Of a DNA stretch of 64,000 nucleotides, positions 2,158 through 31,397 are shown piece after piece. Location of the stretch: positions 544,001 to 608,000 of the forward strand of contig BK006941.2 in the NCBI GenBank assembly GCA_000146045.2. The letters run 5' to 3'. Source of the DNA: TPA_inf: Saccharomyces. Its lineage: Eukaryota. A program made the position numbers and the translations under genes. The stretch's first letter is position 1, and each line of letters opens with the position of its first letter. Under the pieces are notes generated by a model. That model searched no databases. It saw nothing but the letters and a program-made list of their open reading frames with translations, and was not told where the DNA came from.

Positions 2158-2440
2158 TTTGATTTGCTTTTATCTTTTTTTCTTCTTCTTCTTTTCAATC
2201 TCTTCCAAACAATCTTGGCCTCATCTTCATGGAATTTTTCGAAATACTCATCAGCAAGTGTCCGATGCCTTCTCAATTTTTTCCAAGAGCGTGCGGGGGT
2301 TGGTTATCCAGTACATGTGTTGCTTGAAACTGCCAACAAAAAAGAAAAGAAAATAAGAATATATTAGTACGCCAATAGTAAACGTCACCCCGAGGTTTAA
2401 AAACTAACCGTGATATACGAGGAGAATTGGTAACGGTACA

Positions 2441-3469
2441 ATGATGATACTGGGTAAAGCCGGGATCCTGGCACAGTATGGGACAATATATGTGAGACAA
2501 AATACCATTCGGAATAATTTAAGTTCCTGCATTTTTAAGCAGTCACTATGTGCCTTTCATTCATTAGCAAAGGTGCTGCAACAAAAGCAAGTCCCACTGG
2601 ACCTTTCATATGACATAATCAAGAGAGATGCAGTAAAAACTGGGGATGAAGGGAAGCCAAGACCACCTATTATCATACTTCACGGCTTATTCGGTAACAA
2701 GCTCAACAACCGAAGCATTGGCCGTAACCTTAACAAGAAATTGGGAAGAGACGTGTATCTGCTGGACCTAAGAAATCATGGATCCTCACCACACAGTTCA
2801 GTCCATAACTACGAAGTCATGTCGGAAGACGTGAAACACTTTATCACAAAGCACGAATTAAACACCAATGGAGGCCCTATTATAATAGGACACTCAATGG
2901 GTGGTAAAGTTGCCATGATGCTGGTCCTGAAAAACCCGCAACTTTGTTCGATGTTAGTCTGTATAGAGAACGCTCCGGTGAGTTTGCGCCCTAACGCTGA
3001 GTTTGTCGAATACATCAAAGCGCTGATGGAAATCGTCAACGACAAGGGCAAAACTATCCGCACGCTGAAACAGGCTGATGAACACCTTGCAGAGAGGATC
3101 GGCGGCAATGAGCTAGTAAGGCGGTTTCTCCTAACGGCGCTGAAAAAGGTCAAGATGGACAATTCATCGTCTGTGTCGTCATATACATTCGAAGAACGAA
3201 TTCCCCTCGCAACACTGAAAGATGCCATTGTCAAAGGTGAAATTGCCGCGTGGCCCCTAGATCCTGCTCGTGAACGATGGACGCGGCCTGCGCTATTCAT
3301 CAGGGCTACTCAATCGCATTATGTGGTAGACGAGTATCTTCCGATCATCGGCGCGTTCTTTCCACGCTTTGAAACACGTGACATCGATGCGGGTCACTGG
3401 GTAAATGCGGAGAAGCCTGGGGAATGTGCCGAAAGCATCGTCGATTTTGTGGAGCGGCACGAGGATTAA
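2441..3469 (+). CDS. IMO32: Alpha/beta-hydrolase-fold mitochondrial protein (342 aa)
   Basis: Complete 342-aa ORF. It has the HGLFGN oxyanion-hole motif and the GHSMGG nucleophile elbow (GxSxG) of alpha/beta hydrolases. Size and position match YGR031W. Confidence 0.75.
   Translation: MMILGKAGILAQYGTIYVRQNTIRNNLSSCIFKQSLCAFHSLAKVLQQKQVPLDLSYDIIKRDAVKTGDEGKPRPPIIILHGLFGNKLNNRSIGRNLNKKLGRDVYLLDLRNHGSSPHSSVHNYEVMSEDVKHFITKHELNTNGGPIIIGHSMGGKVAMMLVLKNPQLCSMLVCIENAPVSLRPNAEFVEYIKALMEIVNDKGKTIRTLKQADEHLAERIGGNELVRRFLLTALKKVKMDNSSSVSSYTFEERIPLATLKDAIVKGEIAAWPLDPARERWTRPALFIRATQSHYVVDEYLPIIGAFFPRFETRDIDAGHWVNAEKPGECAESIVDFVERHED
2809..3300 (-). CDS. NAG1: Nested antisense ORF (163 aa) entirely inside IMO32; matches the length of NAG1 (YGR031C-A)
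   Basis: A 163-aa ATG-to-stop ORF on the opposite strand within the GC-rich 3' half of IMO32. NAG1 is reported as a 163-aa nested antisense gene of YGR031W (from memory). The high local GC content also inflates ORF length by chance, so confidence is moderate. Confidence 0.4.
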   Translation of the reverse strand: MNSAGRVHRSRAGSRGHAAISPLTMASFSVARGIRSSNVYDDTDDELSILTFFSAVRRNRLTSSLPPILSARCSSACFSVRIVLPLSLTISISALMYSTNSALGRKLTGAFSIQTNIEQSCGFFRTSIMATLPPIECPIIIGPPLVFNSCFVIKCFTSSDMTS

Positions 3470-3502
3470 AGGCAAGCGCCCCGGAGCAAGGTGCCAGTAG
3501 CA

Positions 3503-3523
3503 CCAGTCGGTGGCTGTGCGCTT
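3503..3523 (+). promoter_or_regulatory. Candidate calcineurin/Crz1-dependent response element (CDRE) in the GSC2 (FKS2) promoter
   Basis: The sequence CAGTCGGTGGCTGTGCGCTTG contains the Crz1 core GNGGC(T/G)(G/C)A-like GTGGCTG. It lies about 750 bp upstream of the GSC2 ATG, where the FKS2 CDRE was mapped (from memory). Confidence 0.4.
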
Positions 3524-4251
3524 GCCGTAGCACATGACATACGGACTATTGTGTGAGTGGTGATGGGGTGTAGGCAGTGCCACACCAGTTTAAAGGCCTA
3601 GTAACGGCAAATCGCCAAAAGAGATGATGCTGATGCATACGATAAGATCGTCAGTTTCACGTTCGCGGTTCGAACATGGAATTGTGGCTAAAGAAATTTG
3701 GGCGGTATGATGCAAATGAGGTGTACGTATGTATATATAGCAAAGAGTAGAATAAAATGAGATAAAGCCTCGTTCGTTCTCTCCATTTCTTCCCTGTTTC
3801 TCCTTTATTTTCTCTACTGCTTATTTCGAGTTCACCAGAGAACAAGAGAGCAGGAACGCAAAGAGTGTGTGACACGAAATTCAAGATACAAAAATAAAAG
3901 CTTACGTTGTGTATTTCAACTGGTGTGCTAAGAATAGAGTTTCATAAAGTACTGCATTTATTCATATATTATTTTTGTTATTTGTATATATACTTCACAC
4001 TTAGAGTTCTACTAAAAGTCTACCCAGCACGCATCCTTCGTTTATTTTTACATCTCTCTTTTGCTTTTCCTTTTTTTTTTTGGTGCTTGCTAGATACTAC
4101 TGAAGATCAAAGGTTACAAAGAACGCCGCATATATTTTCTGCAGGCATATTAAAGAAGTTACAAAAGGATTAATCGAAGCGCTGTTTGGATACACTCCTG
4201 TAAAGAGAAGAAAAGGAAAAAAATAAAAAGTGGACAATAAATAATTATTAA

Positions 4252-9951
<5,700 letters not shown>

Positions 9952-17350: not shown

Positions 17351-17661
17351 ACATAGTTTATTTCAATCTTGTATCTAGATGTTTTTGCTATATTTATATT
17401 TTCTGGGCCAAATCACTAACGCTTTGAAATTTCAAAAGCCAACAACGGATTTCGGACTTCATTTATGTAAATGAAAAAGAATGTGAACAAAAATTGAAAA
17501 AATTCCATATTAATGCACCTTCTAAACCTATTTGTTGAAATTGTATTTAATTCATATAATCATATTCTATTCAAAAAGAATAACAGATAGTATTAGCACT
17601 ATTTCACGTACTGCTTCTAATACTATTATCACAAAATAGACATCGGAAAACTCAAAAATAA

Positions 17662-17743
17662 CGACAACTGCAGGACTCGAACCTGCGCGGGCAAAGCCCA
17701 AAAGATTTCTAATCTTTCGCCTTAACCACTCGGCCAAGTTGCC
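17662..17743 (-). tRNA. tS(AGA): tRNA-Ser (anticodon AGA), 82 nt, class II with long variable arm, no intron
   Basis: The reverse complement reads GGCAACTTGGCCGAGTGGTTAAGGCGAAAGATTAGAAATCTTTTGGGCTTTGCCCGCGCAGGTTCGAGTCCTGCAGTTGTCG, the yeast tRNA-Ser(IGA) sequence as I remember it. The anticodon stem AAAGA/TCTTT leaves the 7-nt loop TTAGAAA with anticodon AGA. The 5' flank of this gene, at higher coordinates, holds the Ty1 and Ty2 insertions. Confidence 0.85.
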
Positions 17744-17842
17744 AATGTATACATTGCTGTTTCCTGGTTTGAAGAAGCTAATCGTGCACGTAAACAACAA
17801 TCTATACTACAAGTAAAAAAATGGGGAAAAAGATGCTGAAGG

Positions 17843-18176
17843 TGAGATATATGTGGGTAATTAGATAATTGTTGGGATTCCATTGTTGATAAAGGCTATA
17901 ATATTAGGTATACAGAATATACTAGAAGTTCTCCTCGAGGATTTAGGAATCCATAAAAGGGAATCTGCAATTCTACACAATTCTATAAATATTATTATCA
18001 TCGTTTTATATGTTAATATTCATTGATCCTATTACATTATCAATCCTTGCGTTTCAGCTTCCACTAATTTAGATGACTATTTCTCATCATTTGCGTCATC
18101 TTCTAACACCGTATATGATAATATACTAGTAATGTAAATACTAGTTAGTAGATGATAGTTGATTTCTATTCCAACA
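17843..18176 (-). repeat. Ty1 3' LTR (delta), 334 bp
   Basis: Element-orientation start TGTTGGAATAGAAATC and end ...TATCTCA. Identical to the 5' LTR except for a cluster of differences in the last ~25 nt at the U5 end. Confidence 0.85.
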
Positions 18177-18198
18177 TACCACCCATAATGTAATAGAT

Positions 18199-21100
18199 CT
18201 AATGAATCCATTTGTTAGTTAATAGTTTAAATGTTTTTATCGGAAGAGGTTTTGTCATCACATCAGCAATGTTCTTCTTGGTCTCGATGTAGTATACGTA
18301 TAGATTATTACCTGATACTTCATCTCTAAGTCTCATTGCCTTTGTGCCAAAAAATCTGTTTCTAAATTTCTCTTCATTTGTAGACTTAATTATACTGATC
18401 GTTGATCTACTATCAGTAAGTAAGCCTTTAATAATTGGTTTCTTGTTAAGTTCTTGCACAAGGTGACTGAGGTTATTCAATAGCGGAATAGCTTCACTGA
18501 CTGCGTGTATTTCTGCTTCTGTAGTTGAAGTGCATGTTAACGAAGCCTTTGTCGACTTTCCTCCAATCACTTTTCCGTTGAGTAGGAAAATGTTACCAAT
18601 TTGTGACTTGTAATATGGTTGGTTACCATATGAAGCATCGCTTATTGCGACTAGTTTATTATCTGGCTCGGTAGGTTTGTTTTTGTGCCATATCAGTTGT
18701 TTATCTCTAGTGTCCCACATGAATTGTATTAACTCATATGTCATGTCTAAAACTTGCCTAGAGGGGAATAGTATATGTTGAGCAAGTGTGTTGATGTAGT
18801 ATAGTAAGTCAAATCTAAATTTATATCCAACATATGAAGCTAGACCAATCAACTTTTGCATTTCATGTACCTTCTCTTTGTATTCATCTTCATCTATTTC
18901 TAGTTCATCCTGGTCTATATAAAGACCTGGTTGACCTGGAGCGCTAAGTTTTCTTCCTTTTGGATTCAAAGGTACGTTTAATTTGGGTATTTTCTCAGTT
19001 AATGAGTTTTCCATACCTAATTTCATGTATTTACCTCTTTGATATTTGATTTCTAAGCCAAGTATGTCGTACTGAATTTCGTTATCACTTTCACCCAGAT
19101 TTATTATCTTTGTATCGTATTGTTTCTTGAGTGTTGTTATGATTTTCTTATTTGCATTTAAGTCTTTGCTGAACAATATCATATCATCAACGAATAAGCA
19201 AATTGTTACTTGACTATTCTTAAATACGCATGACCATCCACGAACTTCTTCCATACCACACTGTTTTATCAGGTATGATTTGATAGTTTCGTACCAGTTC
19301 GCTCCACTTTGTTTCAATCCATAAAGTGATTTCTTCAAACGTATCAACTTATCATTCATTCCTAAATGTGGTGGAGGTCTTATGTATAATTCTTCTTTGA
19401 TGTCTGCATACAAATATGCCGAAGATATGTCTAATTGTGTAATATAGTAGTTATTGTCTAATGCAAGTGACAGGGATGTCATTAATGCATAGTGATGTAC
19501 GGTATTGGATTGCATGCCTGAGTCGTAAGTGTCAGGATGCTGAATATCACCTCTTGCAACAAATCTAGCTTTATGAGTACCGTCACGTTTCCTGTTGAAG
19601 ATAAACATTGAATTTATTACTCTTTTAGGGTCTATTTCTTTTCTGTCATAATATTTGTCAGTGTCCCAAGTATTCATTTTCAATAGTTGGTTGACTTCTT
19701 TGTGGTATGCTTCGATATATTTTTCCTTTTCTTTAATATCTTTATTATAGGTGATTGCCTCATCGTATCTTAAGGTTGTCCGTATTGGTTTGATTGATTT
19801 TACTGCTTTTACAGCTGCAATCAGGTGAATTCGTTTCTTCGATCTCGGAGGTTCTAAACTACGCATATTCTTAGTATTCCATGTGTCTCGTGATACCTTA
19901 ATTTCAGTTTCATTATCTTCTAATGATCTTTTCTTACTGTTGATAGTAGTATAGGCATTAGAGTCACCAATACCACCCAAACTGGAATTAGTTTGATGAG
20001 AATTTATCGGTGGGAGTTCTTTAAATGGGTCAGGGAATTCGGTAGGAGATTCTGGAGGTAGATCAGGGAGTGGGAGATCAGCGATGATAGATTCCTCGGT
20101 ATTCTGTTCAGAAACAGTAGTTGGCGTTTTGATAGGAACAATATTGTGCGATGAATTATTTTCCGGTGGAGAAGCATCGATTGAAGGTGAACGGTGTATA
20201 ATCCTTTTCTCAGTCTCTTGGTCACTTATCTGCGGAACAGTTTTGTTGTTGGTACCACCCGTACTGGATATTGGTACGTTTGTATGATTAGTCTCATTTT
20301 CACTGTACGAGTCTGAGTGTCTGAAATCTTTAGATTTACTGGCGTGCGACGACTCATGTGTGTTAGATTGGGACATGGGAGCAAGTAAAGGAACATTTAA
20401 TTTATGCATACCACCCGAACCGGTACTCTCGATATTGGAAATTTGGGGGGTGCTAGATCTCTTCTTTGATGGAAGAATATTAGATTCAGATATGTTGGGG
20501 TCAACTTCTCTGGGTGCGCGAATATTGGTTTTAGAAACACGTTTCGAATCTTCAGTATGAGTTGACGGAGGTGTGGAATCGGTTGGACTCACAGCTTTTG
20601 AAAGGACATTTCTCGGTTGCTCAGGATGTAGTTCAATGTCGGATTGGAAGTCATGGTCAGATTCTATGTTAAGATCATTGGATTCTTGGATCTCATTTGA
20701 CGCAATGAACGAATGATATGAAGCAGTTAAACGGTTTAAGTCTTCATCGAAAGTGAGTGCGTCGTAATTGAATTGATCTAATCTGGATTCCTTGCCCTGA
20801 AGAATAACATAGTTAGTTGTATCTACTGTCTTCTTTAAGGATGGAAGATAGATGATATATCCATAAGAGTTTCGAGACGGATGTAGAGCGTAGCCTGGGA
20901 TGCCACGAGGATGTATTTTGGAGTTAGGGTTGTGATCATTGACGATAACAGGTTGACCGAAAGGTAACAAAGTACTGATATCAAGTCCTGCCAAGCCAGC
21001 ATGTTGTCTTGCAGATTTTTTGCTTTTAGGTGAAGCTAGTGAATTTCTCACAATAGTAGAAAATTCGATTGCAGAGAACCATAAATGGTTCGGTAAACCA

Positions 21101-22165
21101 CTACATTGCAGTTGAGTACGGCAGTCATCTAATAAGGTACGGTTTAGCCGTTCAGCGACTCCATGTGCTCGGGAATCCGCTGTGGTTGTATAGCATGGAG
21201 TTATACCATTTTTTTCAAGGAATTTATGGAGAGTTCTGTTAGTATACTCAGAACCACGGTCCATTTGTATAACCAAGACACTGGCCTGAAACTGGTTTTT
21301 AATAAAAGCTAGTATCGTAGTAAAAACATCGAGGATAGAGTCCTCGCGACGGTCGTGTAATGGATAAACCCAACGGAATTTTGTTGTCTCATCAGTAAAT
21401 GAGATGAAATAGGATGGTGCACTATTTGGTAGGTTGTGAACTGGACCAAATATGTCAGTATGTAGGTATTGAAAGGGTTCGTATGAATTTTGGTATTTTA
21501 GTCGTGAACCTTTGATATGTCTGTGTTTGGTGCTTTTGCCGATTAAACAATCAGGACATTGATAGTCAATAGCACTAGACCAGTCGACATCTGATTCGTT
21601 AAAATACGTGATGGTGTTATTTTTAAGTGAGTATCGAATTGTCTGTGCATTGGCATGCGCAAGCATTCGATGAATGAAAGGATAAGGATATTTGCGTGTA
21701 CTTTCACTTGTATGGACATTATTGATGGTGGGTACGGAGATATTTGATGGAAGCAAGTACTTTTTAGATACCCAGTAAAAGTCTCCATATTTTACGATAG
21801 GTGCAAGTACAGTGCCGTCAGATCGTTCTAAGACGTTTTTGGTAAAGCATGCTGTGATATCTACTGCAGCCAATTCATTCAAACTGAGTAAGTCATAGGC
21901 TATGTTAGGAGTGTGCAATACCTTTATTGATGTTTTGGTGTTGTCCTGGAAGTGAAATTGTAGGTCACCAATAGCGTTAATTGGTATATTTCTTTTTTGA
22001 GCATCAACTACGTTTATGCCAGGATTAGATGATGCTGAGTGTATGTGGTGAGCAGATCTTATAAGGGTTCGTGATGCTCCTGAATCGAGAAGGAGGTGTC
22101 CAGGGAGTTCATCATCAGAATGATTAGTGTGATTTACCGTAGATTCAGTAAGTTCCTGGCCTAAG
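18199..22165 (-). CDS. TYB: Ty1 TYB (Pol: protease-integrase-reverse transcriptase/RNase H), expressed by +1 ribosomal frameshift from TYA
   Basis: The frameshift heptamer CTTAGGC lies at 22159-22165 (minus strand) in the TYA/TYB overlap. Downstream is a continuous pol frame to 18199. It carries the integrase zinc-binding (HHCC-like) and D,D-35-E motifs, and the RT motif YVDDM is present as FVDDM. Confidence 0.85.
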
Positions 22166-23467
22166 ATGAAGGTCGTGCTTATTGTTCAATTGAATCGGTT
22201 CAGTAGTTGATTTACTGATGGAATCGTTGTCCGTGCTGGGAGAGTTATTAGATGTGGATACATTGTGAGCCCTGGCTGTTTTCGATTTCGAATTATTTGT
22301 TTTTTGAGGATTCCGAGCTATAACTTTGGGTTTGGTTGTATTCGTATAGCTGCGAGAATCATTCTTCTCATCACTCGGATTTCTCCTGTAATTAGGTTTG
22401 CTGTTTCTCGATCCCTGTTGTTCTTCATAAATAGCATGGATATCTAAGAACAGTTCAGCGACTGTCATATTTAGATGTCGATGACGTGTGTAGCGTAAAA
22501 ATTTATATTCGCCAGATAGACCTCTCATAATTAATTGGCATGCGACCTTGTTATTGATATGAATGCCATTATTGTTCAGTCTGTCGATAATGTTTGTGAC
22601 TTTTGTTTCAAATGCATCTGCAGGTGTACTGCCATTATATTGCAAATTTGCCAGGGTCACAATGTCGTTTGCCTCTTGGGTATCAGATTGCATTTTTTCA
22701 ATACTTTTGGAAAGAATTTTCATGATATCCGTATAATCAACGGATAGGATGTCTTTGACCCAGGTAGGTAGGAATTGAGAGGGAGCAAATATTTGAAAAG
22801 TGTTATACAAGAAGGTGAGTTCATCATCAGTGATCTGACGTACGGGTTTTCCGTTTACTGTCGGAATAATACCACCGAGATTCGAGTTTTGTAAAAATTT
22901 GATGTATGTTTTAACCCAATTTGGAAAGTCATTAGGTGAGGTTAACATTGGTGGTGGTCTGACATATTTTTTAGTGGATGTCATATCAGAGTCCGCTGAG
23001 GATGAATCAGTAAATGTATTACCTGACTCAGGTGATGGAGTGCTCAGAGGCGTTCCAACTGATGATGGATACTGCGGAAACTGTGATTGTGGCCCAGGTG
23101 GAAAGTACATAGGCGACATTTGATAAGGTGTATACGGAATCATAGATGGGTGTCCGTAAAATGACCAACCAGATGGATTGGCTTGGTTTTGGGTCATCAT
23201 GCACTGCTGTGGGTACGGCCCATTCTGTGGAGGTGGTACTGAAGCAGGTTGAGGAGAGGCATGATGGGGGTTCTCTGGAACAGCTGATGAAGCAGGTGTT
23301 GTTGTCTGTTGAGAGTTAGCCTTAGTGGAAGCCTTATCATATTCTTGAATTTTGGAAGCTGAAACGTCTAACGGATCTTGATTTGTGTGGACTTCCTTAG
23401 AAGTAACCGAAGCACAGGCGCTACCATGAGATATATGTGAATGTTGAGATAATTGTTGGGATTCCAT
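22145..23467 (-). CDS. TYA: Ty1 TYA (Gag, 440 aa)
   Basis: [39 protein letters not shown]... is the Ty1 Gag sequence. The ORF length is 440 aa. Confidence 0.9.
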
Positions 23468-23760
23468 TGTTGATAAAGGCTATAATATTAGGTATACAGA
23501 ATATACTAGAAGTTCTCCTCGAGGATTTAGGAATCCATAAAAGGGAATCTGCAATTCTACACAATTCTATAAATATTATTATCATCGTTTTATATGTTAA
23601 TATTCATTGATCCTATTACATTATCAATCCTTGCGTTTCAGCTTCCACTAATTTAGATGACTATTTCTCATCATTTGCGTCATCTTCTAACACCGTATAT
23701 GATAATATACTAGTAATGTAAATACTAGTTAGTAGATGATAGTTGATTTCTATTCCAACA
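23427..23760 (-). repeat. Ty1 5' LTR (delta), 334 bp; contains the TYA start codon
   Basis: Bounded by the PBS complement on one side and the GAAGG duplication on the other. The TYA ATG (minus strand, 23467) lies within U5. Confidence 0.85.
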
Positions 23761-24740
23761 GAAGGAGATAAAAATTTCAAAATGTTTCTATGATAAATTT
23801 ATAATGAATTTATAATAATGTTTTGGGCTGTTTCCCTTTAGATTATTTAGCTTATCGTACATAATCGCACATAATCAGACTCTTTATTATATATAATTAA
23901 ATATTTCGAGATTTACATACTAGTGGTTACTTAAAAGTGTAATCGCAAATTATATCAGAAATGAACAAAGATACGCAGTCCAAATTATTGACAACAACCA
24001 GCATATGTACTTAGTAATATTTTATGAAGTTACTAAATCAAGATTAGAAACGTAAAAATAGAATAACATGATCAAGTTCAAGTCTGAATTTCCTTTAATA
24101 TTTGGATAAGTAAATTCACTACGTGACATGATTGGTTGGTGCCAACATAACACAATTTTAACATTATGTAATCTACAGGATAAGTAGCATTCTGTGTAAC
24201 AAATTGTAGTAAGTCTGGCAAATCTCTACTCTCTTAAAGGTATAAGGATTGTCCAGATACCCGATATTACTAGAGGCCGTCATGTATAAAATGTGGTAAC
24301 GTAAAATATACACTTAACAGAAAGTTAAAAAAGGTTAAGTTATACGTGGCTTTCTCCTTTTTTCTTTTCAAGTACCTACCTGCTGTTAATTAATAGTTAA
24401 TATTGATCACGAGAATAACAGATCTTCATATACAGTATAAGAGAGATCTATAAAACTAAAAATGGATAGATTTTGATGAAATTCGTGGGCCGATATACTC
24501 TTCAGTTTGTCATTCATGATTTATTATAATATAGACTTCATAAGTGAACTTTGTAGTTTCTGGTGATTACTATAGCGATACTTTTCGAATAGTCACAACA
24601 AGAGCTTCTGCTTCACGTTTTTTGGAAACAAAAGACTGAGGAGGGGCTAAATATAAATACTGATTCATATTACGAAAGGAAATAAAAAAATAACTATATG
24701 TAGATTTATATTAATATTGTATAATTGCAGTCCTTGTATT

Positions 24741-25072
24741 TGAAGAGAATGTGGATTTTGATGTAATTGTTGGGATTCCATTGTGATTAAGGCTATAATA
24801 TTAGGTATGTAGATATACTAGAAGTTCTCCTCGAGGATTTAGGAATCCATAAAAGGGAATCTGCAATTCTACACAATTCTATAAATATTATTATCATCAT
24901 TTTATATGTTAATATTCATTGATCCTATTACATTATCAATCCTTGCGTTTCAGCTTCCACTAATTTAGATGACTATTTCTCATCATTTGCGTCATCTTCT
25001 AACACCGTATATGATAATATACTAGTAACGTAAATACTAGTTAGTAGATGATAGTTGATTTTTATTCCAACA
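24741..25072 (-). repeat. Ty2 3' LTR, 332 bp
   Basis: Delimited by the TSD and the TG...CA termini. It differs from the 5' LTR at 5 or more positions. Confidence 0.8.
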
Positions 25073-25094
25073 TACCACCCATAATGTAATAGAT

Positions 25095-28000
25095 CTAATG
25101 AATCCATTTGTTAGTTAATAGTTTAAATGTTTTTATCGGAAGAGGTTTTGTCATCACATCAGCAATGTTCTTCTTGGTCTCGATGTAGTATACGTATAAA
25201 TTATTACCTGATACTTCATCTCTAAGTCTCATTGCCTTTGTGCCAAAAAATCTGTTTCTAAATTTCTCTTCATTTGTAGACTTAATTATACTGATCGTTG
25301 ATCTACTATCAGTAAGTAAGCCTTTAATAATTGGTTTCTTGTTAAGTTCTTGCACAAGGTGACTGAGGTTATTCAATAGCGGAATAGCTTCACTGACTGC
25401 GTGTATTTCTGCTTCTGTAGTTGAAGTGCATGTTAACGAAGCCTTTGTCGACTTTCCTCCAATCACTTTTCCGTTGAGTAGGAAAATGTTACCAATTTGT
25501 GACTTGTAATATGGTTGGTTACCATATGAAGCATCGCTTATTGCGACTAGTTTATTATCTGGCTTGGTAGGTTTGTTTTTGTGCCATATTAATTGTTTAT
25601 CTCTAGTGTCCCACATGAATTGTATTAACTCATATGTCATGTCTAAAACTTGCCTAGAGGGGAATAGTATATGTTGAGCAAGTGTGTTGATGTAGTATAG
25701 TAAGTCAAATCTAAATTTATATCCAACATATGAAGCTAGACCAATCAACTTTTGCATTTCATGTACTTTCTCTTTGTATTCATCTTCATCTATTTCTAGT
25801 TCATCCTGGTCTATATAATGACCTGGTTGACCTGGAGCTCTAAGTTTCTTTCCTTTTGGGTTCAAAGGTACGTTTAGTTTGGGTAATTTTTCTGTCAAGG
25901 ATTTTTCCATACCTAATTTCATGTACTTGCTTCTTTGATATTTGATCTCTAATCCAAGTATGTCGTACTGAATTTCGTTATCACTTTCACCCAGATTTAT
26001 TATCTTTGTATCGTATTGTTTCTTGAGTGTTGTTATGATTTTCTTATTTGCATTTAAGTCTTTGCTGAATAATATCATATCATCAACGAATAAGCAAATT
26101 GTTACTTGACTATTCTTAAATACGCATGACCATCCGCGAACTTCTTGCATGTCGCAACAATTTATTAAATATGATTTAATGGTTTCATACCAGTTTGCAC
26201 CACTTTGTTTCAAACCATAGAGTGATTTTCTCAAACGTAGTAATTTATCATTCAAACCTAAATGTGGTGGAGGTCTTATGTATAATTCTTCTTTGATATC
26301 AGCATATAAGTAAGCAGAGGATATGTCCAGCTGTGTGATATAATAGTCGTTGTCTAATGCGATTGACAGTGACGTCATCAGTGCATAGTGATGTACGGTA
26401 TTGGATTGCATATCAGAATCATATGTATCGGGGTGTTGAATGTCGCCTCTTGCAACAAATCTAGCTTTGTGTGTACCATCACGTTTCTTGTTAAATATAA
26501 ACATTGAGTTTATTACTTTTTTAGGATCTATGTCATTTCTATCATAATATTTGTTTGTATCCCAAGTGTTCATTTTCAATAGTTGGCTAATTTCTTTATG
26601 ATAAGCTTCAACATATCTGTCTTTTTCTTTGTTGTCTTTATTATATGTAATTGCTTCATCATATCTTAAGGTCGTTCGAACTGGTTTGATCGATTTCACT
26701 CCTTTTATTGCTGCAATTAAATTTATGCGTTTCTTCGATCTTGGTGGTTCCAGACTTCTCATATTCTTATTATTCCATGTGTCTCGGGATACCTCAATTT
26801 CAGTTTCATTATCTTCTAATGATCTTTTCTTACTTTTGGTAGTAGTCAGAACATTAGAATCATCCATACCACCCAAACTGGAATTAGTCTGACGAGAGTG
26901 TATGTGTGGAATATCTTTTGAAACATCAGAAGTGTCCGTAGGAGATTTATGGGTTAAGTCAGGAAGTGGGAGGTCGTCAAGAATAGAATCAGCCGTAACA
27001 TTTTTTGAGGATTTGTCAGGCATTATATTAGGAGTCGCATGGTCAGAAGATCGATATTCTGGCGGATCCGTATCAATGGAGGGTGTATTATCACATACAG
27101 CCTTTGTTTCTATGGAGATGATGGGAGTAGTGGATTCACTGTTGGACGAACGGTCATCTATTGAGGGCGTACTATTTGTAGTCCTGTATTTGATATTTGT
27201 ATCACTATTTCGTTGAATATATGGTTCCTCCGTACCACCCAAACGTGTAGTTTTGATGTTTTCAAGTCCATAATTAACTCTATCCTGTGAGGTCAAATCA
27301 ATCATCTCATTGGTACTACCAGGTCGGTTTTGGTTTCGTGCAGTGAAGGTAGACGAGTGTCTAGGTGAAGTAGTATCTGATTCAACGGTACCACCCATTT
27401 CGGTACTCTCTTTATTAATGATATGGGGTGTACGAGATCGTATAGTAGATGGAAGAATATTGTATTCAGATATGTCGGCATCAACTTCTTTTGGTGCACG
27501 TACTTTTTGGACTGGTTCCTTGTCTAATTGTAAAGGGTTTATTGATTGGGACGAGAAGTCGTTCACTAGAGGATCAGAGTTTATTTCAATCTCCGATTGA
27601 TAGTCATGATCAGATTCTGTATTTTGATCATATGACTGCTCTGTTTCATTTTGTTCAATAAAAGATTGGTTATGGGCTGTTAAACGATTGAGATCATCAT
27701 CAAAAGTGAGTGTATCGTAGTCGAACTGGTCCAATTTCGTTTGCTTGTTTTGTAATATAACGTAATTGGTAGTATCTACTGTCTTTTTTAATGATGGAAG
27801 ATAGATAATATAGCCATAAGAGTTTCGTGACGGATGTAAGGCGTAACCTGGAATGCCACGAGGATGTATTTTCGAGTCGGGATTATGGTTGTTAACTATA
27901 ACCGGTTGACCGAAAGGTAGTATAGTAGTAATGTCCAGTCCAGCTAAACCTGCATGTTGTCTTGCAGATTTATCGTTTTTTTGGTGAGACTAATGAATTT

Positions 28001-29119
28001 CTGATTATAGTAGAAAATTCGACTGCTGAGAACCATAGATGATTTGGTAGACCACTGCAATGAAGCAGTGTGCGACAATCGTTTAATAAAGTACGATTTA
28101 ATCGTTCAGCGACACCGTGTGCTCTAGAATCTGCCGTGGTTGTATAGCATGCAGTAATACCTCTGTTCGTAAAGAACTTATGAAGAGTTTTGTTAGTGTA
28201 CTCGGAGCCACGATCCATCTGGATAACTAGAACGCGAGCATTGAATTGGTTCTTAATAAATGCTAATATCGATGTAAAAACATTGAGGATAGATTCTTCA
28301 CGACGGTCGTGTAATGGGTACACCCATTGGAATCTGGTTTTCTCATCTGTAAACGATATAAAGTAAGAAGGTGCACTTTTCGGTAAGTGATGTACAGGAC
28401 CAAATATATCGGTGTGCAAGTACTGAAAAGGCTCATATGATTCTTGGTACTTTAGTCGTGATCCTTTGACATGTCTATGTTTCGTGCTTTTGCCGATTAG
28501 ACAGTCAGGACATTGATATGTGCTAGCGTTAGACCATTCAATATCCGATTCCTTCAAATATGTAACTGCATTCTTCTTAAGAGACTTCTGAATACTTCGG
28601 AAGTTAGCATGTCCAAGCATTCGATGTATTAACGGATATGGATATTTATTTACGCTTTTGCTTTTGTTGACGTTGTTTATTGTTAGCTTTGAAATGTGCG
28701 AAGGAATTAGGTATTTTTTAGATAACCAGTAAAAGTCTCCATGTTTGACTATGGGAGCTAGTACTGTACCATCCGATCTTTCTAAAGTGTTTCTGGTAAA
28801 GCAGGCAGTAATATTTTGATTAGCCAGCTCACTCAAACTTAATAGATCATAGGCTATGTTTGGTGTGTGTAGTGCTTTTATTGATGTTTTGGTGCCGTTC
28901 TGAAAGTTGAAGTGAAGATTACCAATGGCATTTATAGGAATGTCTTGTTTTTGAGCATCGACTATGTTTATTTCAGAATTGGGTGTTGCATGGTGTAAAT
29001 AATGGGCTGATCTGACAAGCGTTTGCGAAGCTCCTGAATCAATAAGAAGGTGATCAGGTAGTTCGTCATTCGAGTCTATTGTGTGTGTTGGCTTAGATTC
29101 TTTCTGTTGCTGGCCTAAG
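25095..29119 (-). pseudogene. Ty2 TYB (Pol) disrupted by a +1 frameshift in an A7 run in the integrase region
   Basis: The frameshift heptamer CTTAGGC is present at 29113-29119. The pol frame runs to ...NSLVSPKKR and a stop at 27970-27972. The downstream continuation ([50 protein letters not shown]...) is in the -1 frame, starting within the A7 run at 27976-27982. Removing one A restores a single long pol ORF. Confidence 0.75.
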
Positions 29120-30409
29120 ACTAAGTTCGTCGTCATCGCTTAAGTATTGTGATGAAACGGTTGATTCATTAATGTGATCATTGTTCACCCTTGAGAATTT
29201 ACTAGATGTAGCAATATTGTGAGCTTTTGCTGCTCTTGGTTTTGAACTATTTGTTCTATGATAATTACGAGTTGTAACCTTTGTGTTAGTCGTGTTTGGA
29301 GATGTGCGAGAAACATTTTTGTATTCGCTGTGTTGTTTGTATTGGGACGGTTTATTTAGATTCATGATTTTATTTTCGTCATATATTAATTGAATTTCAG
29401 CGAATAATTGGGAAAGTTTCATGTTCGTTTTGGTACGATATTGATTACGTAGGTATTTGAAGTCACCGGATAGACCTTTAAGTATTAGTTGACAGGCCAA
29501 TCTGTCGCTAACATTGATATTGTTTTCTTTTAGCCTCTGAATGATCGTACTGACTGTAATTTCAAATGTATCAGCAGATGTACTTCCGTCGTACTCAAGG
29601 TTGGCAAGAGCTATCCAATCCTTTAATTCTTGATTGTTAGTTTGCATTTTGGACACACTTTTACAAAGGACTGTAAGGATGTCAGCATAATTAATTTCTA
29701 AAATTTGTTTTACCCATGTTGGCAATAAATGAAATGGGGCAAATGCTTGGAAGGTATTGTATATATACGCATGTTCTTCATAAGTCATTTGTCTTTTGAT
29801 TTCACCCTGGTCATTTGGAATGATGTCACCGAGATTAGAGTTCTTCAAAAATCTGATGTAAAATTTAACCCATGTAGAAAAGTTTTCTTCTGATGTTAAA
29901 GTGTGTGGTGGTAAGACGTTATTTCCCACCTTTGTCTTAGCTTGAGGTATTTCAGAGTGTTGATTTTTTAAATCGATTGGATCAGGTGAGGAAGTACTCA
30001 GTGGTGGGATATACTGTGGCAACGGATAGTGTGGGTCCGGTTGATAATACGCAGGTGACGTTTGATAATGTGAACACGTCATCATAGATGGTTGTTGGTA
30101 ATGTGCCCAGTTAGAGGCCATAGCTTTGTTTGGGGTCATCATGCCGTGCTGTTGGTACTGTCCATTCTGTGGAGGTGGTACTGAAGCAGGTTGAGGAGAG
30201 ACATGATGATGGTTCTCTGGAACAGCTGATGTCCCAGGTGTTGTCTCTTGTTGAGAATTAACCTTAGTGGAATCTCTATCAAATTCCGGTAAATTGGAAG
30301 CTGAAACGGCTAACGGATCTTGATTTTATGGGACTTCCTTAGAAGTAACCGAAGCATAGGCGCTACCATGAAGAGAATGTGGATTTTGATGTAATTGTTG
30401 GGATTCCAT
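29093..30409 (-). pseudogene. Ty2 TYA (Gag, 438 codons) inactivated by a single nonsense codon at codon 28
   Basis: The frame from the ATG at 30409 reads [27 protein letters not shown], then TAA (plus-strand tta at 30326-30328). I recall TCA at this position in intact Ty2. The same frame continues open to the normal Gag stop, so the Ty2-Gag-like 349-aa ORF at 29093..30142 in the track lies on this frame. Total 439 codons including the stop. Confidence 0.8.
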
Positions 30410-30700
30410 TTTTTATAAGGCGATAATATTAGGTATGTAGATATACTAGAAGTTCTCCTCGAGGATTTAGGAATCCATAAAAGGGAATCTGCAATTCTAC
30501 ACAATTCTATAAATATTATTATCATCATTTTATATGTTAATATTCATTGATCCTATTACATTATCAATCCTTGCGTTTCAGCTTCCACTAATTTAGATGA
30601 CTATTTTTCATCATTTGCGTCATCTTCTAACACCGTATATGATAATATACTAGTAACGTAAATACTAGTTAGTAGATGATAGTTGATTTTTATTCCAACA
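30369..30700 (-). repeat. Ty2 5' LTR, 332 bp
   Basis: Delimited by the PBS complement and the TSD. It contains the TYA ATG (minus strand 30409). Confidence 0.8.
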
Positions 30701-31397
30701 GTATTTATGTTTTGTCATTCTTTTCTACATAATCTTGAAACTAGGTAGATCTACAATTGAAAAGTAAATACTAACATTATTTACTAAATTTAAGTTAGAA
30801 ATCGGCACGAAAAAAATTTGACAGATTACGAGAGTCCAGCCAAAATATGAGTATATTACTATTTCCCCTTGGTGAAAGAAATGAAAGATGTTATTTTTTA
30901 CCGGCTTAGTAATACTGAGCTACTTACTTGGGGGAAAGAAAGATTGGCTACTTATTATGTATGAAGCCTCAGATTACCTTGAATTCCTCAACCGTTTGAG
31001 CAGTATGCTCTTCAAATTCGAACTTTTTGAACATCTTTCCTCCACATTCCTGATTTTTTCACATTCAAAACGCGCTGTGAAGCTGTTAGAAATTTACAGA
31101 TCGAGGCATATTTCTATATATAATGTATTTTTATTAAGACACCCAAAGTACTTCCAATCTGTAGATATTGCACTTTATCTGACCAGAAGCCAGACTTGAA
31201 CAGTTACATATTGTGCTTTGCAGTCGTTAAATTTCCCGAACTGTTTTCGTATTTTTTTTTCTTTTCCTCTTTTCCACTGGATCAGATCAAAAGCCGACTA
31301 AAAATTTGGCAATTTAAAGAAAGCATCTTTTAAAGATAGAAAAGGTTATTTCAACAAAAAAGTATCTTTTCTTCACTTTTCTTTCAACAATTCAAAG

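Follow-up and report, generated by a model that had tools for sequence, protein, structure and literature searches.

The locus contains a full-length Ty2 element

The window (i.e., the whole 64,000-nucleotide stretch of DNA that was analyzed) had the gene order FKS2...ORM1, a Ty1 element, a Ty2 element, KSS1, BUD9..., which was consistent with chromosome VII. The Ty1 and Ty2 elements lay upstream of a tRNA-Ser(AGA) gene: the Ty1 was 98 bp upstream, and the Ty2 site was about 1.08 kb upstream when the Ty1 was removed. The tRNA gene is likely to be the targeting landmark for the insertions. The features of the locus, in window coordinates, were as follows.

17661..17744, minus strand: tRNA-Ser(AGA) gene, the context of the Ty1/Ty2 pair
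17843..23760, minus strand: adjacent Ty1 (YGRCTy1-2), intact, in the same orientation as the Ty2 and 980 bp from it; duplication CCTTC; Gag-Pol open over 1755 aa
24736..24740, minus strand: target-site duplication next to the 3' LTR, read as AATAC along the element and as GTATT along the plus strand; other strains have a single copy at their empty site
24741-30700, minus strand: full Ty2, 5960 bp, TG...CA ends
24741..25072, minus strand: 3' LTR, 332 bp, with G at LTR position 94 and the canonical Ty2 patch TATAGCCTTAATCACAATGG
25073..25080, minus strand: polypurine tract (PPT) GGGTGGTA, directly before the 3' LTR
25095..27975, minus strand: distal TYB, which encodes the integrase C-terminal region, reverse transcriptase, and RNase H and whose frame is open only once one A is removed; the normal TYB stop is at 25095-25097
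29093..30409, minus strand: TYA (Gag) frame, ATG at 30409, 438 codons plus stop (codon 439), broken at codon 28
29113..29119, minus strand: heptamer CTTAGGC, in frame with TYA, for +1 ribosomal frameshifting; TYB goes on in +1
30359..30368, minus strand: primer-binding site (PBS) TGGTAGCGCC, directly after the 5' LTR
30369..30700, minus strand: 5' LTR, 332 bp, with a private A at LTR position 94 (30607) and the patch TATCGCCTTATAAAAAATGG at 30411-30422
30701..30705, minus strand: target-site duplication next to the 5' LTR, again AATAC along the element and GTATT along the plus strand

All of the coordinates and sequence strings in the preliminary description, which had reported a complete Ty2 whose termini, PBS, heptamer, and target-site duplication are intact, were verified. 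Specifically, the element carried two 332-bp direct LTRs (TGTTGG...TCTTCA), a 5-bp target-site duplication, a PBS and a PPT, and overlapping TYA and TYB frames joined by CTTAGGC. The PBS was TGGTAGCGCC, which we take to be complementary to the 3' end of the initiator tRNA-Met, as in Ty1 and Ty2 elements generally. The LTR alignment contained AGTATA-TCTACA versus the Ty1 sequence AGTATATTCTGTA, and this 1-bp deletion separates Ty2 from Ty1 LTRs (Carr et al. 2012, PMC3511429). When the coding frames were repaired in silico (see below), Pfam domains were found at residues 17-396 (TYA, E=5.8e-204), 455-532 (Pol_BBD), 659-759 (rve), and 1296-1470 (RVT_2), and this order of TYA, protease-barrel, integrase, and RVT_2 was the copia order. 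The repaired Gag-Pol differed from the S288C Ty2-C Gag-Pol at 17 of 1770 aa. In the gag and mid-pol regions, the window Ty2 mismatched the neighboring Ty1 at 55-109 nt per 150 bp. These features identify a Ty2, a Ty1/copia-type LTR retrotransposon (Pseudoviridae).

The element is YGRCTy2-1, an already catalogued Ty2 of S288C chromosome VII, and not a new one. Its window coordinates mapped exactly to chrVII:568745-574704 on the minus strand when compared to Files S2 and S3 of Carr et al. 2012, and its two LTRs were the sequences chrVII_u13-_TY2_5 and chrVII_u13-_TY2_3 of that study. The corresponding entry of Carr, Bensasson & Bergman 2012 (PMC3511429) reads chrVII_u13-_TY2, 568745 574704, -, YGRCTy2-1, 'Full'; coordinates, strand, length, LTRs, the neighbor YGRCTy1-2, and the flanking genes were the same, and there were no differences. 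The entry was also placed in an 'Active' lineage and called 'Polymorphic', and these classes, like 'Full', were assigned on LTR phylogeny alone (Carr et al. 2012, PMC3511429). In other published work, YGRCTy1-2 and YGRCTy2-1 were named together at ~573 kb, and non-allelic recombination breakpoints were mapped to the region around the pair.

Two changes interrupt the coding frames of YGRCTy2-1

The TYA frame and the TYA-TYB frame were both interrupted. The changes that set the coding region apart were as follows.

30326..30328, minus strand: nonsense codon TAA at TYA codon 28, with A at 30327 in place of the C (TCA, Ser) of other Ty2 copies
27976..27982, minus strand: A7 run, a +1A frameshift that follows Gag-Pol residue 810 and lies in the integrase, downstream of the catalytic core
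27970..27972, minus strand: premature TAA in the TYB frame, reached via the extra A (...VSPKKR*)
27705..27749, minus strand: 8 clustered substitutions in 45 bp, as compared with five other Ty2 copies, yielding D887N, S890T, and N896D

Codon 28 was TAA, as previously proposed, and it was TCA in nine other Ty2 copies; deletion of one A from the A7 run restored the reading of an otherwise normal Ty2 Gag-Pol. When this deletion was combined with the repair of codon 28, an uninterrupted Gag-Pol of 1770 aa was obtained. The preliminary description had counted exactly two lesions. That count was correct for changes that break an open reading frame, since the TAA and the A7 run were the only ones; it did not extend to the protein sequence as a whole, which carried four further private substitutions (N427D, D887N, S890T, and N896D) that occurred in no other Ty2 compared. 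We considered the adjacent Ty1 as the donor of the 45-bp cluster or of the LTR patch described below and rejected it, because at most of these positions its sequence was not that of the window variant. An exact look-up of the 879-aa open reading frame downstream of the frameshift returned no match.

Judging from these frames, YGRCTy2-1 is unable to make its own proteins and hence is a non-autonomous copy, because the TAA at TYA codon 28 is combined with a TYB frameshift. A C-to-A change converts codon 28 from TCA to TAA, and the gain of one A by an A6 run shifts TYB after residue 810, such that the integrase C-terminal region, reverse transcriptase, and RNase H would be left untranslated. Any activity of the element would presumably rely on other Ty2 or Ty1 copies to provide Gag and Pol in trans, or would be that of a DNA substrate for recombination. 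The element had earlier been called silenced, and the term does not fit: there was no sign of transcriptional silencing, and the defect was one of coding. The preliminary description further proposed that the element may still be transcribed and may pass sequence to the adjacent Ty1 by recombination.

Downstream of the codon 28 stop, the next in-frame AUGs (codons 90/91) opened an N-terminally truncated Gag frame of 349 codons. It is conceivable, and in our judgment very improbable, that these AUGs could give a 349-aa Ty2 Gag that interferes with Ty2/Ty1 particle assembly in a p22-like manner. The resemblance of this predicted frame to Ty1 p22 and other truncated-Gag restriction factors (PMC4599808), including the domesticated Ty1' Gag (PMC10951436), was formal only: Ty1 p22 comes from an internal transcript and corresponds to the C-terminal half of Ty1 Gag, whereas the Ty2 frame is a predicted one. 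If the 349-aa Gag were expressed and inhibitory, the pseudo-element would be a host-beneficial inhibitor instead of inert debris.

The lesions are rare among the Ty2 copies examined

Look-ups of the S288C Ty2 proteins P0008 and P0012 returned no record of S288C Ty2 DNA; the comparison set instead consisted of Ty2 copies from other assemblies and from metagenomes, and S288C copies were taken from the sequence files of Carr et al. 2012. Lesion calls were based on assemblies and contigs. The five copies from other strains (L008, L011, L012, L013, and L014) all had C at 30327 (TCA) and an A6 run. Metagenome Ty2 contigs had TCA in 4/4 cases, and A6 in both of the contigs that covered the run, which brought the directly read copies to nine with TCA and seven with A6. 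In the alignments published for six further S288C Ty2 loci, the TAA and the A7 run were absent; A6 was found in all six, and the exact TCA string was found in four. A scan of JGI metagenomes for the A7 allele found none, and a second metagenome scan, which allowed either base at codon 28, yielded TCA copies only.

Intact Ty2 copies such as Ty2-C (YCL019W Gag-Pol, P25384 = P0008), L012, and L013 were ~99% identical to the window element in nucleotide sequence over 5.96 kb and shared its LTR length, PBS, heptamer, and, once the window element was repaired, its 1770-aa Gag-Pol. In contrast to the window element, they had TCA at codon 28 and A6 at the run; the window element additionally had the four private missense changes and the 45-bp substitution cluster. 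A Ty2 of a different strain (L008) was also full-length, had identical LTRs, and carried single-base insertions that broke its open reading frames, but its lesions were different, its insertion site was ~310 bp away, and its orientation was opposite. As this copy shows, Ty2 pseudo-elements with point lesions are commonplace. With regard to YGRCTy2-1, the searched text of Carr et al. 2012 (PMC3511429) contained no mention of stop codons or frameshifts, and the two coding lesions are therefore not described there.

The one exception to A6 among the directly read copies covering the run was L015, an independent Illumina contig that had A7 and encoded a 388-aa truncated product identical to that of the window element; the A6 call in strain CEN.PK113-7D was unreliable, as described below. 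L015 also had four linked nearby variants in common with the window element (element positions 2979-2996), and the second half of this variant cluster was present in the S288C chrIV_i3 Ty2. At 21 other positions L015 and the window differed, and several of the L015 bases were private to it.

CEN.PK113-7D carries the same insertion

The assembly of the related laboratory strain CEN.PK113-7D (GCA_002571405.2), which is independent of the reference, also contained this Ty2. Its site and its target-site duplication were those found in the window, and the element was tandemly duplicated. Both Ty2 copies had TAA at codon 28. All three LTRs of the tandem had the 5'-type patch, and the outer 3' LTR differed from the 5' LTR at position 94 only. 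These patches could in principle have been homogenized by short-read polishing across the three LTR copies.

At the frameshift site the CEN.PK113-7D assembly had A6, and three other A6 runs inside the Ty2 were shortened to A5. Thus, four of the eight runs of at least 6 bases inside the Ty2 were one base short, whereas all of the runs of at least 6 bases in flanking unique DNA kept their length (30 of 31 were exact, and one had a base substitution). Because other Ty2 runs were shortened while flanking runs kept their length, the A6 call is unreliable and not contradictory, and we did not count it against the frameshift.

Two events account for the LTR differences

The preliminary description had reported LTRs that differed at five or more positions. 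The quoted strings matched, and there were exactly six differences in 332 bp (1.8%), the most of any full-length S288C Ty2. One was at LTR position 94, which was A in the 5' LTR (30607) and G in the 3' LTR (24979). The other five fell in a short patch.

24783..24794, minus strand: 12-bp patch of the 3' LTR (LTR positions 279-290) with 5/6 LTR differences; the 5' LTR counterpart is 30422-30411

Each patch haplotype was identical to, or one base away from, a haplotype present in other S288C Ty2 LTRs, and among the 13 full-length S288C Ty2 elements only this one had discordant patch haplotypes in its own two LTRs. The 3' LTR patch was flanked on both sides by 5'-LTR-like sequence, including the terminal TCTTCA; most a-type LTRs have TCTACA. 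On this sequence evidence, the six differences are the product of two events and not of age: one point change and one 12-bp patch. The first event was a single-base change in the 5' LTR, at position 94, that CEN.PK113-7D also has. The second would have taken place in the S288C lineage and affected the 3' LTR: a short tract of gene conversion, with LTR positions 278 and 330 as its bounds, in which the element's own patch TATCGCCTTATAAAAAATGG was replaced with the commonest Ty2 patch TATAGCCTTAATCACAATGG, probably from an a-type Ty2 LTR.

Alternative explanations

The divergence between the LTRs had initially been attributed to an old insertion or to LTR conversion. Conversion agreed with the circulation of the patch haplotypes among Ty2 LTRs, and great age did not agree with the distribution of the insertion. 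YGRCTy2-1 was listed at a frequency of 0.12, or 3/25 strains, and as 'Polymorphic' in File S2 of Carr et al. 2012 (PMC3511429), and when we compared presence and absence across strains, a clean empty site with a single GTATT was found in 10/10 other assemblies. According to Carr et al. 2012 (PMC3511429), Ty2 as a family arrived only recently. Thus, although LTRs that diverged by accumulated point mutations would account for a level of difference above that of every other full-length S288C Ty2, an old insertion is hardly credible given the low frequency, the clean empty sites, the youth of the family, the confinement of five differences to 12 bp, and the single LTR difference of the CEN.PK copy. 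A somewhat better, yet still improbable, explanation is that the patch difference was made during reverse transcription, for example, by intermolecular plus-strand transfer between co-packaged Ty2 cDNAs. Both patch haplotypes circulate among Ty2 elements of the same genome, and mixed particles are plausible. However, the borders of the a-type patch, which are identical to the 5' LTR out to TCTTCA, point to a short internal tract instead of a whole-LTR swap, and the 3' LTR of the same insertion in CEN.PK113-7D has the 5'-type patch. We therefore favor later conversion over a reverse transcription product.

With regard to the coding lesions, one or both could be sequencing or assembly errors in the reference, in which case the element would be intact. 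A homopolymer is a classic site of error, and the CEN.PK113-7D assembly has A6 there. We consider an error quite unlikely, since the TAA is a substitution that was reproduced in both CEN.PK copies, the CEN.PK A6 call was not dependable, and L015 independently contained A7. In addition, the S288C reference was resequenced. A less remote, although still doubtful, proposal is that the lesions, or at least the A7 run, were already present in the parental RNA and that proteins provided in trans carried out the insertion of this copy; a defective Ty2 lineage would then be propagating, or spreading by conversion, with no decay in place. The A7 run and linked variants of L015, which came from an unrelated sample, and the partial cluster in chrIV_i3 are consistent with this proposal. 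On the other hand, slippage from A6 to A7 is recurrent by nature, and the L015 contig, which is 2 kb long and 10x, may have been assembled as a chimera from paralogues. Neither the JGI scan nor the six other S288C loci yielded A7, and across the metagenome scan and those six loci TAA was found nowhere outside the YGRCTy2-1 locus. Compared with a p22-like inhibitor, it is a more modest possibility that the A7 allele is a marker of a non-autonomous Ty2 lineage that spread in trans, as the L015 sequence hints.

Taken as a whole, the results make it very probable that YGRCTy2-1 is a young, lineage-restricted insertion with intact cis parts, defective coding frames, and LTR differences that stem from two events.

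Implications for Ty2 biology

YGRCTy2-1 is already annotated in the yeast genome that has been studied best, and defective Ty copies are to be expected; the import of the finding is mostly one of bookkeeping. Counts of 'full-length, active-lineage' Ty2 elements overstate the number of coding-competent copies, because YGRCTy2-1 is disabled by two separate lesions. An age estimated from LTR divergence would be badly wrong for this insertion, since a single probable conversion event accounts for five of the six differences. Finally, since the Ty1/Ty2 pair is a documented breakpoint region in rearrangements of chromosome VII and is the site of the tandem in CEN.PK113-7D, YGRCTy2-1 is structurally consequential even though it is coding-defective.

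Structure and coding lesions of the Ty2 element

The preliminary description had placed two coding lesions in a full-length Ty2 element, and all of its coordinates and sequence strings were correct when the window sequence was read again. The element has the following features.

Features of the Ty2 element (window coordinates)
30700-24741, minus strand: Ty2 element, 5960 bp, starting TGTTGG and finishing TCTTCA
Both sides of the element: 5-bp target-site duplication, AATAC
30700-30369 and 25072-24741, minus strand: LTRs, 332 bp each
Immediately after the 5' LTR: PBS, TGGTAGCGCC
Immediately before the 3' LTR: PPT, GGGTGGTA
30409, minus strand: TYA start, within the 5' LTR
30328-30326, minus strand: TYA codon 28, TAA
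29119-29113, minus strand: heptamer CTTAGGC, in frame
27982-27976, minus strand: A7 run, after which the TYB frame ends ...VSPKKR and a stop

Translation of Gag halted after 27 codons, and the usual TYA stop was codon 439. If Gag were read through, the last Pol residue would be 812, past the catalytic core of integrase, and the products would lack RT, RNase H, and the C-terminal region of integrase. When one A was deleted and codon 28 was taken as sense, we obtained a single open 1770-aa Gag-Pol with the Pfam families TYA, protease barrel, integrase core, SH3-like, and RVT_2 in copia order. The TAA and the A7 frameshift in TYB bore out the proposal that this is a pseudo-element.

Comparison with other Ty2 copies

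Five Ty2 copies were used for comparison: L008 (another strain, same locus region), L012 (an S. cerevisiae/boulardii assembly), and the metagenome-derived L011, L013, and L014. All were 98-99% identical to the window element, and all five had C at 30327 (TCA, Ser) and an A6 run. The neighbouring Ty1 likewise had neither the stop nor the extra A. A metagenome scan yielded four further Ty2 contigs, with TCA in all four and A6 in both of those spanning the run. Published alignments were also read for six further S288C Ty2 loci, all full-length. TAA and A7 were absent from these; A6 was present in every one, and four had the exact TCA string. Compared with the S288C Ty2-C Gag-Pol, the repaired protein had 17 differences in 1770 residues. 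Private to the window Ty2 were N427D, D887N, S890T, and N896D, which were located in the C-terminal tail of Gag and the C-terminal region of integrase, away from catalytic motifs. Judged by sequence, the claim that two lesions break the ORFs of an otherwise normal Ty2 holds, with the four missense changes as a caveat.

Relative to the five other copies, eight substitutions fell within 45 bp (window 27705-27749) and resulted in D887N, S890T, and N896D. The first half of this cluster matched no other copy examined, and the second half was common to contig L015 and the S288C chrIV_i3 Ty2. The adjacent Ty1 was rejected as its source. At L011 40-372 we observed a Ty1-type 5' LTR and Ty1-like first ~70 Gag codons, fused to a Ty2 body and Ty2 3' LTR; this metagenome-derived contig represents a Ty1/Ty2 recombinant or else a chimera produced in assembly. 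L012 (GCA_001413975.1) carried an intact Ty2 at 2210-8168, between thiamine pyrophosphokinase and succinyl-CoA ligase genes. The corresponding S288C site is presumably near the Ty1 YORWTy1-2.

Identity and locus

Gene names around the element were deduced from lengths and Pfam families, and the order (FKS2, TIM21, RPL26B, CAX4, ACB1, ORM1, Ty1, Ty2, KSS1, BUD9, ZGRF1-like, transaldolase, RME1, TAM41, TFC4) agreed with chromosome VII. Carr, Bensasson & Bergman 2012 (PMC3511429) place YGRCTy2-1 at chrVII 568745-574704, and subtraction of an offset of 544004 gave exactly 24741-30700. Both LTRs of that element were the same as those of the window Ty2, down to the private A at position 94 and the two variants of the patch. 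The neighbour is listed there as YGRCTy1-2, and in a 2025 preprint YGRCTy1-2 and YGRCTy2-1 are named jointly at ~573 kb. Because coordinates and LTR sequences coincide and the preprint names the pair, the window Ty2 is an ordinary, already known, annotated S288C feature. A fixed Ty3p solo-LTR fragment is annotated at chrVII 568168-568287 (window 24164-24283), in the 980-bp Ty1-Ty2 spacer (Carr et al., PMC3511429).

Other strains carried an independent Ty2 (L008 3027-8995) or a solo LTR (L007 8672-9009), both at approximately window 24431-24440, in the opposite orientation and ~310 bp from the window Ty2 site. The LTRs of the L008 Ty2 were identical to each other, and its own single-base insertions broke its ORFs. 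With the Ty1 included, three separate sites lie in ~1.1 kb upstream of tRNA-Ser(AGA), and this stretch is an insertion hotspot.

LTR differences, insertion age, and the CEN.PK113-7D copy

The two LTRs of the window Ty2 differed at six positions. At position 94, the 5' LTR had A; G was present in the 3' LTR and in all other Ty2 LTRs seen. The remaining five differences were inside 12 bp (positions 279-290) that lie shortly before the TYA ATG. This region was polymorphic in the S288C Ty2 family, and several haplotypes were distinguished among its LTRs.

Patch haplotypes among S288C Ty2 LTRs
TATAGCCTTAATCACAATGG, commonest (a-type): window Ty2 3' LTR and numerous other LTRs (the 3' 18 bases of the haplotype had 15 exact matches in the LTRs of the Carr et al. 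sequence file)
TATTGCCTTATAAAAAATGG: three other LTRs
TATCGCCTTATAAAAAATGG, with a private C: window Ty2 5' LTR only (5'-type)
...TTATTAAAAATGG and ...TTATCAAAAATGG: other LTRs

The window Ty2 was the only one of 13 full-length S288C Ty2 elements with discordant patch haplotypes in its own two LTRs; in three others, the LTRs differed by a single base in the patch.

The LTR divergence had been attributed to either an old insertion or conversion by other elements. Great age was contradicted by the insertion frequency of YGRCTy2-1, which is 0.12 (Carr et al., PMC3511429), and by empty sites in ten other assemblies with an identical KSS1 protein. In all ten, the Ty2 insertion was absent and the flanks were directly joined, and five read exactly ...CAGTCCTT GTATT TATGTTTTG..., with a single GTATT. 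Conversion was borne out by the 3' LTR, in which the a-type patch sat within sequence otherwise the same as that of the 5' LTR, including the terminal TCTTCA, whereas most a-type LTRs end TCTACA. Because the patch is enclosed in this way, the conversion tract was probably short, with LTR positions 278 and 330 as its limits.

Among the assemblies compared, the insertion was common only to the laboratory strain CEN.PK113-7D (GCA_002571405.2), in which the flank differed from the window by 2 SNPs in ~9 kb. The insertion had the same flanks and duplication and was present as a tandem.

The CEN.PK113-7D tandem
L021 9443-21022, chrVII: LTR-Ty2-LTR-Ty2-LTR, matching window 24741-30700
LTR1: A94 and 5'-type patch
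LTR2 and LTR3: G94 and 5'-type patch

A middle LTR with G94 and the 5'-type patch is the pattern expected from unequal LTR-LTR exchange; polishing with short reads might have made the three LTRs alike in the assembly. In the most economical history, insertion would have produced two like LTRs (G94, 5'-type patch), and G94A would have arisen in the 5' LTR before the S288C and CEN.PK lineages separated. The 3' LTR patch would then have been replaced in S288C by a short conversion from another Ty2 LTR, and unequal LTR-LTR exchange would have generated the CEN.PK tandem.

The LTRs of the adjacent Ty1 (window 17843-18176 and 23427-23760) differed solely in a tight patch, with 5 differences in 7 bp (positions 315-321, CAACATT vs AATTACC), and the Ty1 itself was intact. 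Because the YGRCTy1-2 LTRs also differ by a tight patch, short-tract LTR conversion seems to be recurrent at this locus.

Reality and origin of the lesions

Because both CEN.PK tandem copies carry TAA, the nonsense codon is inherited and is not a reference error; it is older than the S288C/CEN.PK split. It was not found elsewhere in the metagenome Ty2 scan or at the six other S288C loci.

The frameshift site read A6 in the CEN.PK assembly. Four of the eight homopolymers of at least 6 bases in the CEN.PK Ty2 were short by one base (A7 to A6 at 27982; A6 to A5 at 27789, 27006, and 26522), and the last three were A6 in all other Ty2 copies. All 31 such runs in the flanking unique DNA kept their length (30 exactly, one with a base substitution). 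This shortening is the mark of unpolished long-read consensus in repeats, and we rejected the CEN.PK A6 as untrustworthy evidence against the frameshift. The A7 run and a truncated 388-aa product exactly as in the window Ty2 were found in L015, a 2002-bp Illumina/SPAdes contig (ENA sample ERZ21852950; 1-2002 matches window 27232-29230). With this independent support, A7 appears to be real, with small residual doubt.

L015 comes from an unrelated sample and is a separate Ty2 copy. It differed from the window Ty2 at 21 sites, several of which were private to L015, and had in common with it A7 and four linked variants (element positions 2979-2996). Of the 45-bp cluster, L015 had only this second half, which was also present in the S288C chrIV_i3 Ty2. 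Because a different copy has A7 and the four linked variants, A7 may go back to a defective parent, may have passed between copies by conversion, or may be the product of slippage on two occasions; we consider inheritance or spread unlikely.

Consequences

The results confirmed what had been observed in the preliminary description and indicated that its interpretation was partly right: a pseudo-element with LTR conversion, yes; an old, silenced insertion, no. "Silenced" was the wrong word for an element in which it is the coding that is broken. Because its LTRs, PBS, PPT, and frameshift site remain intact, established Ty biology suggests that proteins of other copies could use its RNA in trans. 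Over its last 1.3 kb, the Ty2 was near-identical to the adjacent Ty1, which has the same orientation (0-16 mismatches per 150 bp). The region of the pair is a documented non-allelic recombination site, and in one strain background the region around YGRCTy1-2/YGRCTy2-1 contained 14 of the 22 endpoints of chromosome VII deletions (2025 preprint). On the same general grounds of Ty biology, the DNA of this element would be able to take part in recombination between LTRs and between Ty elements.
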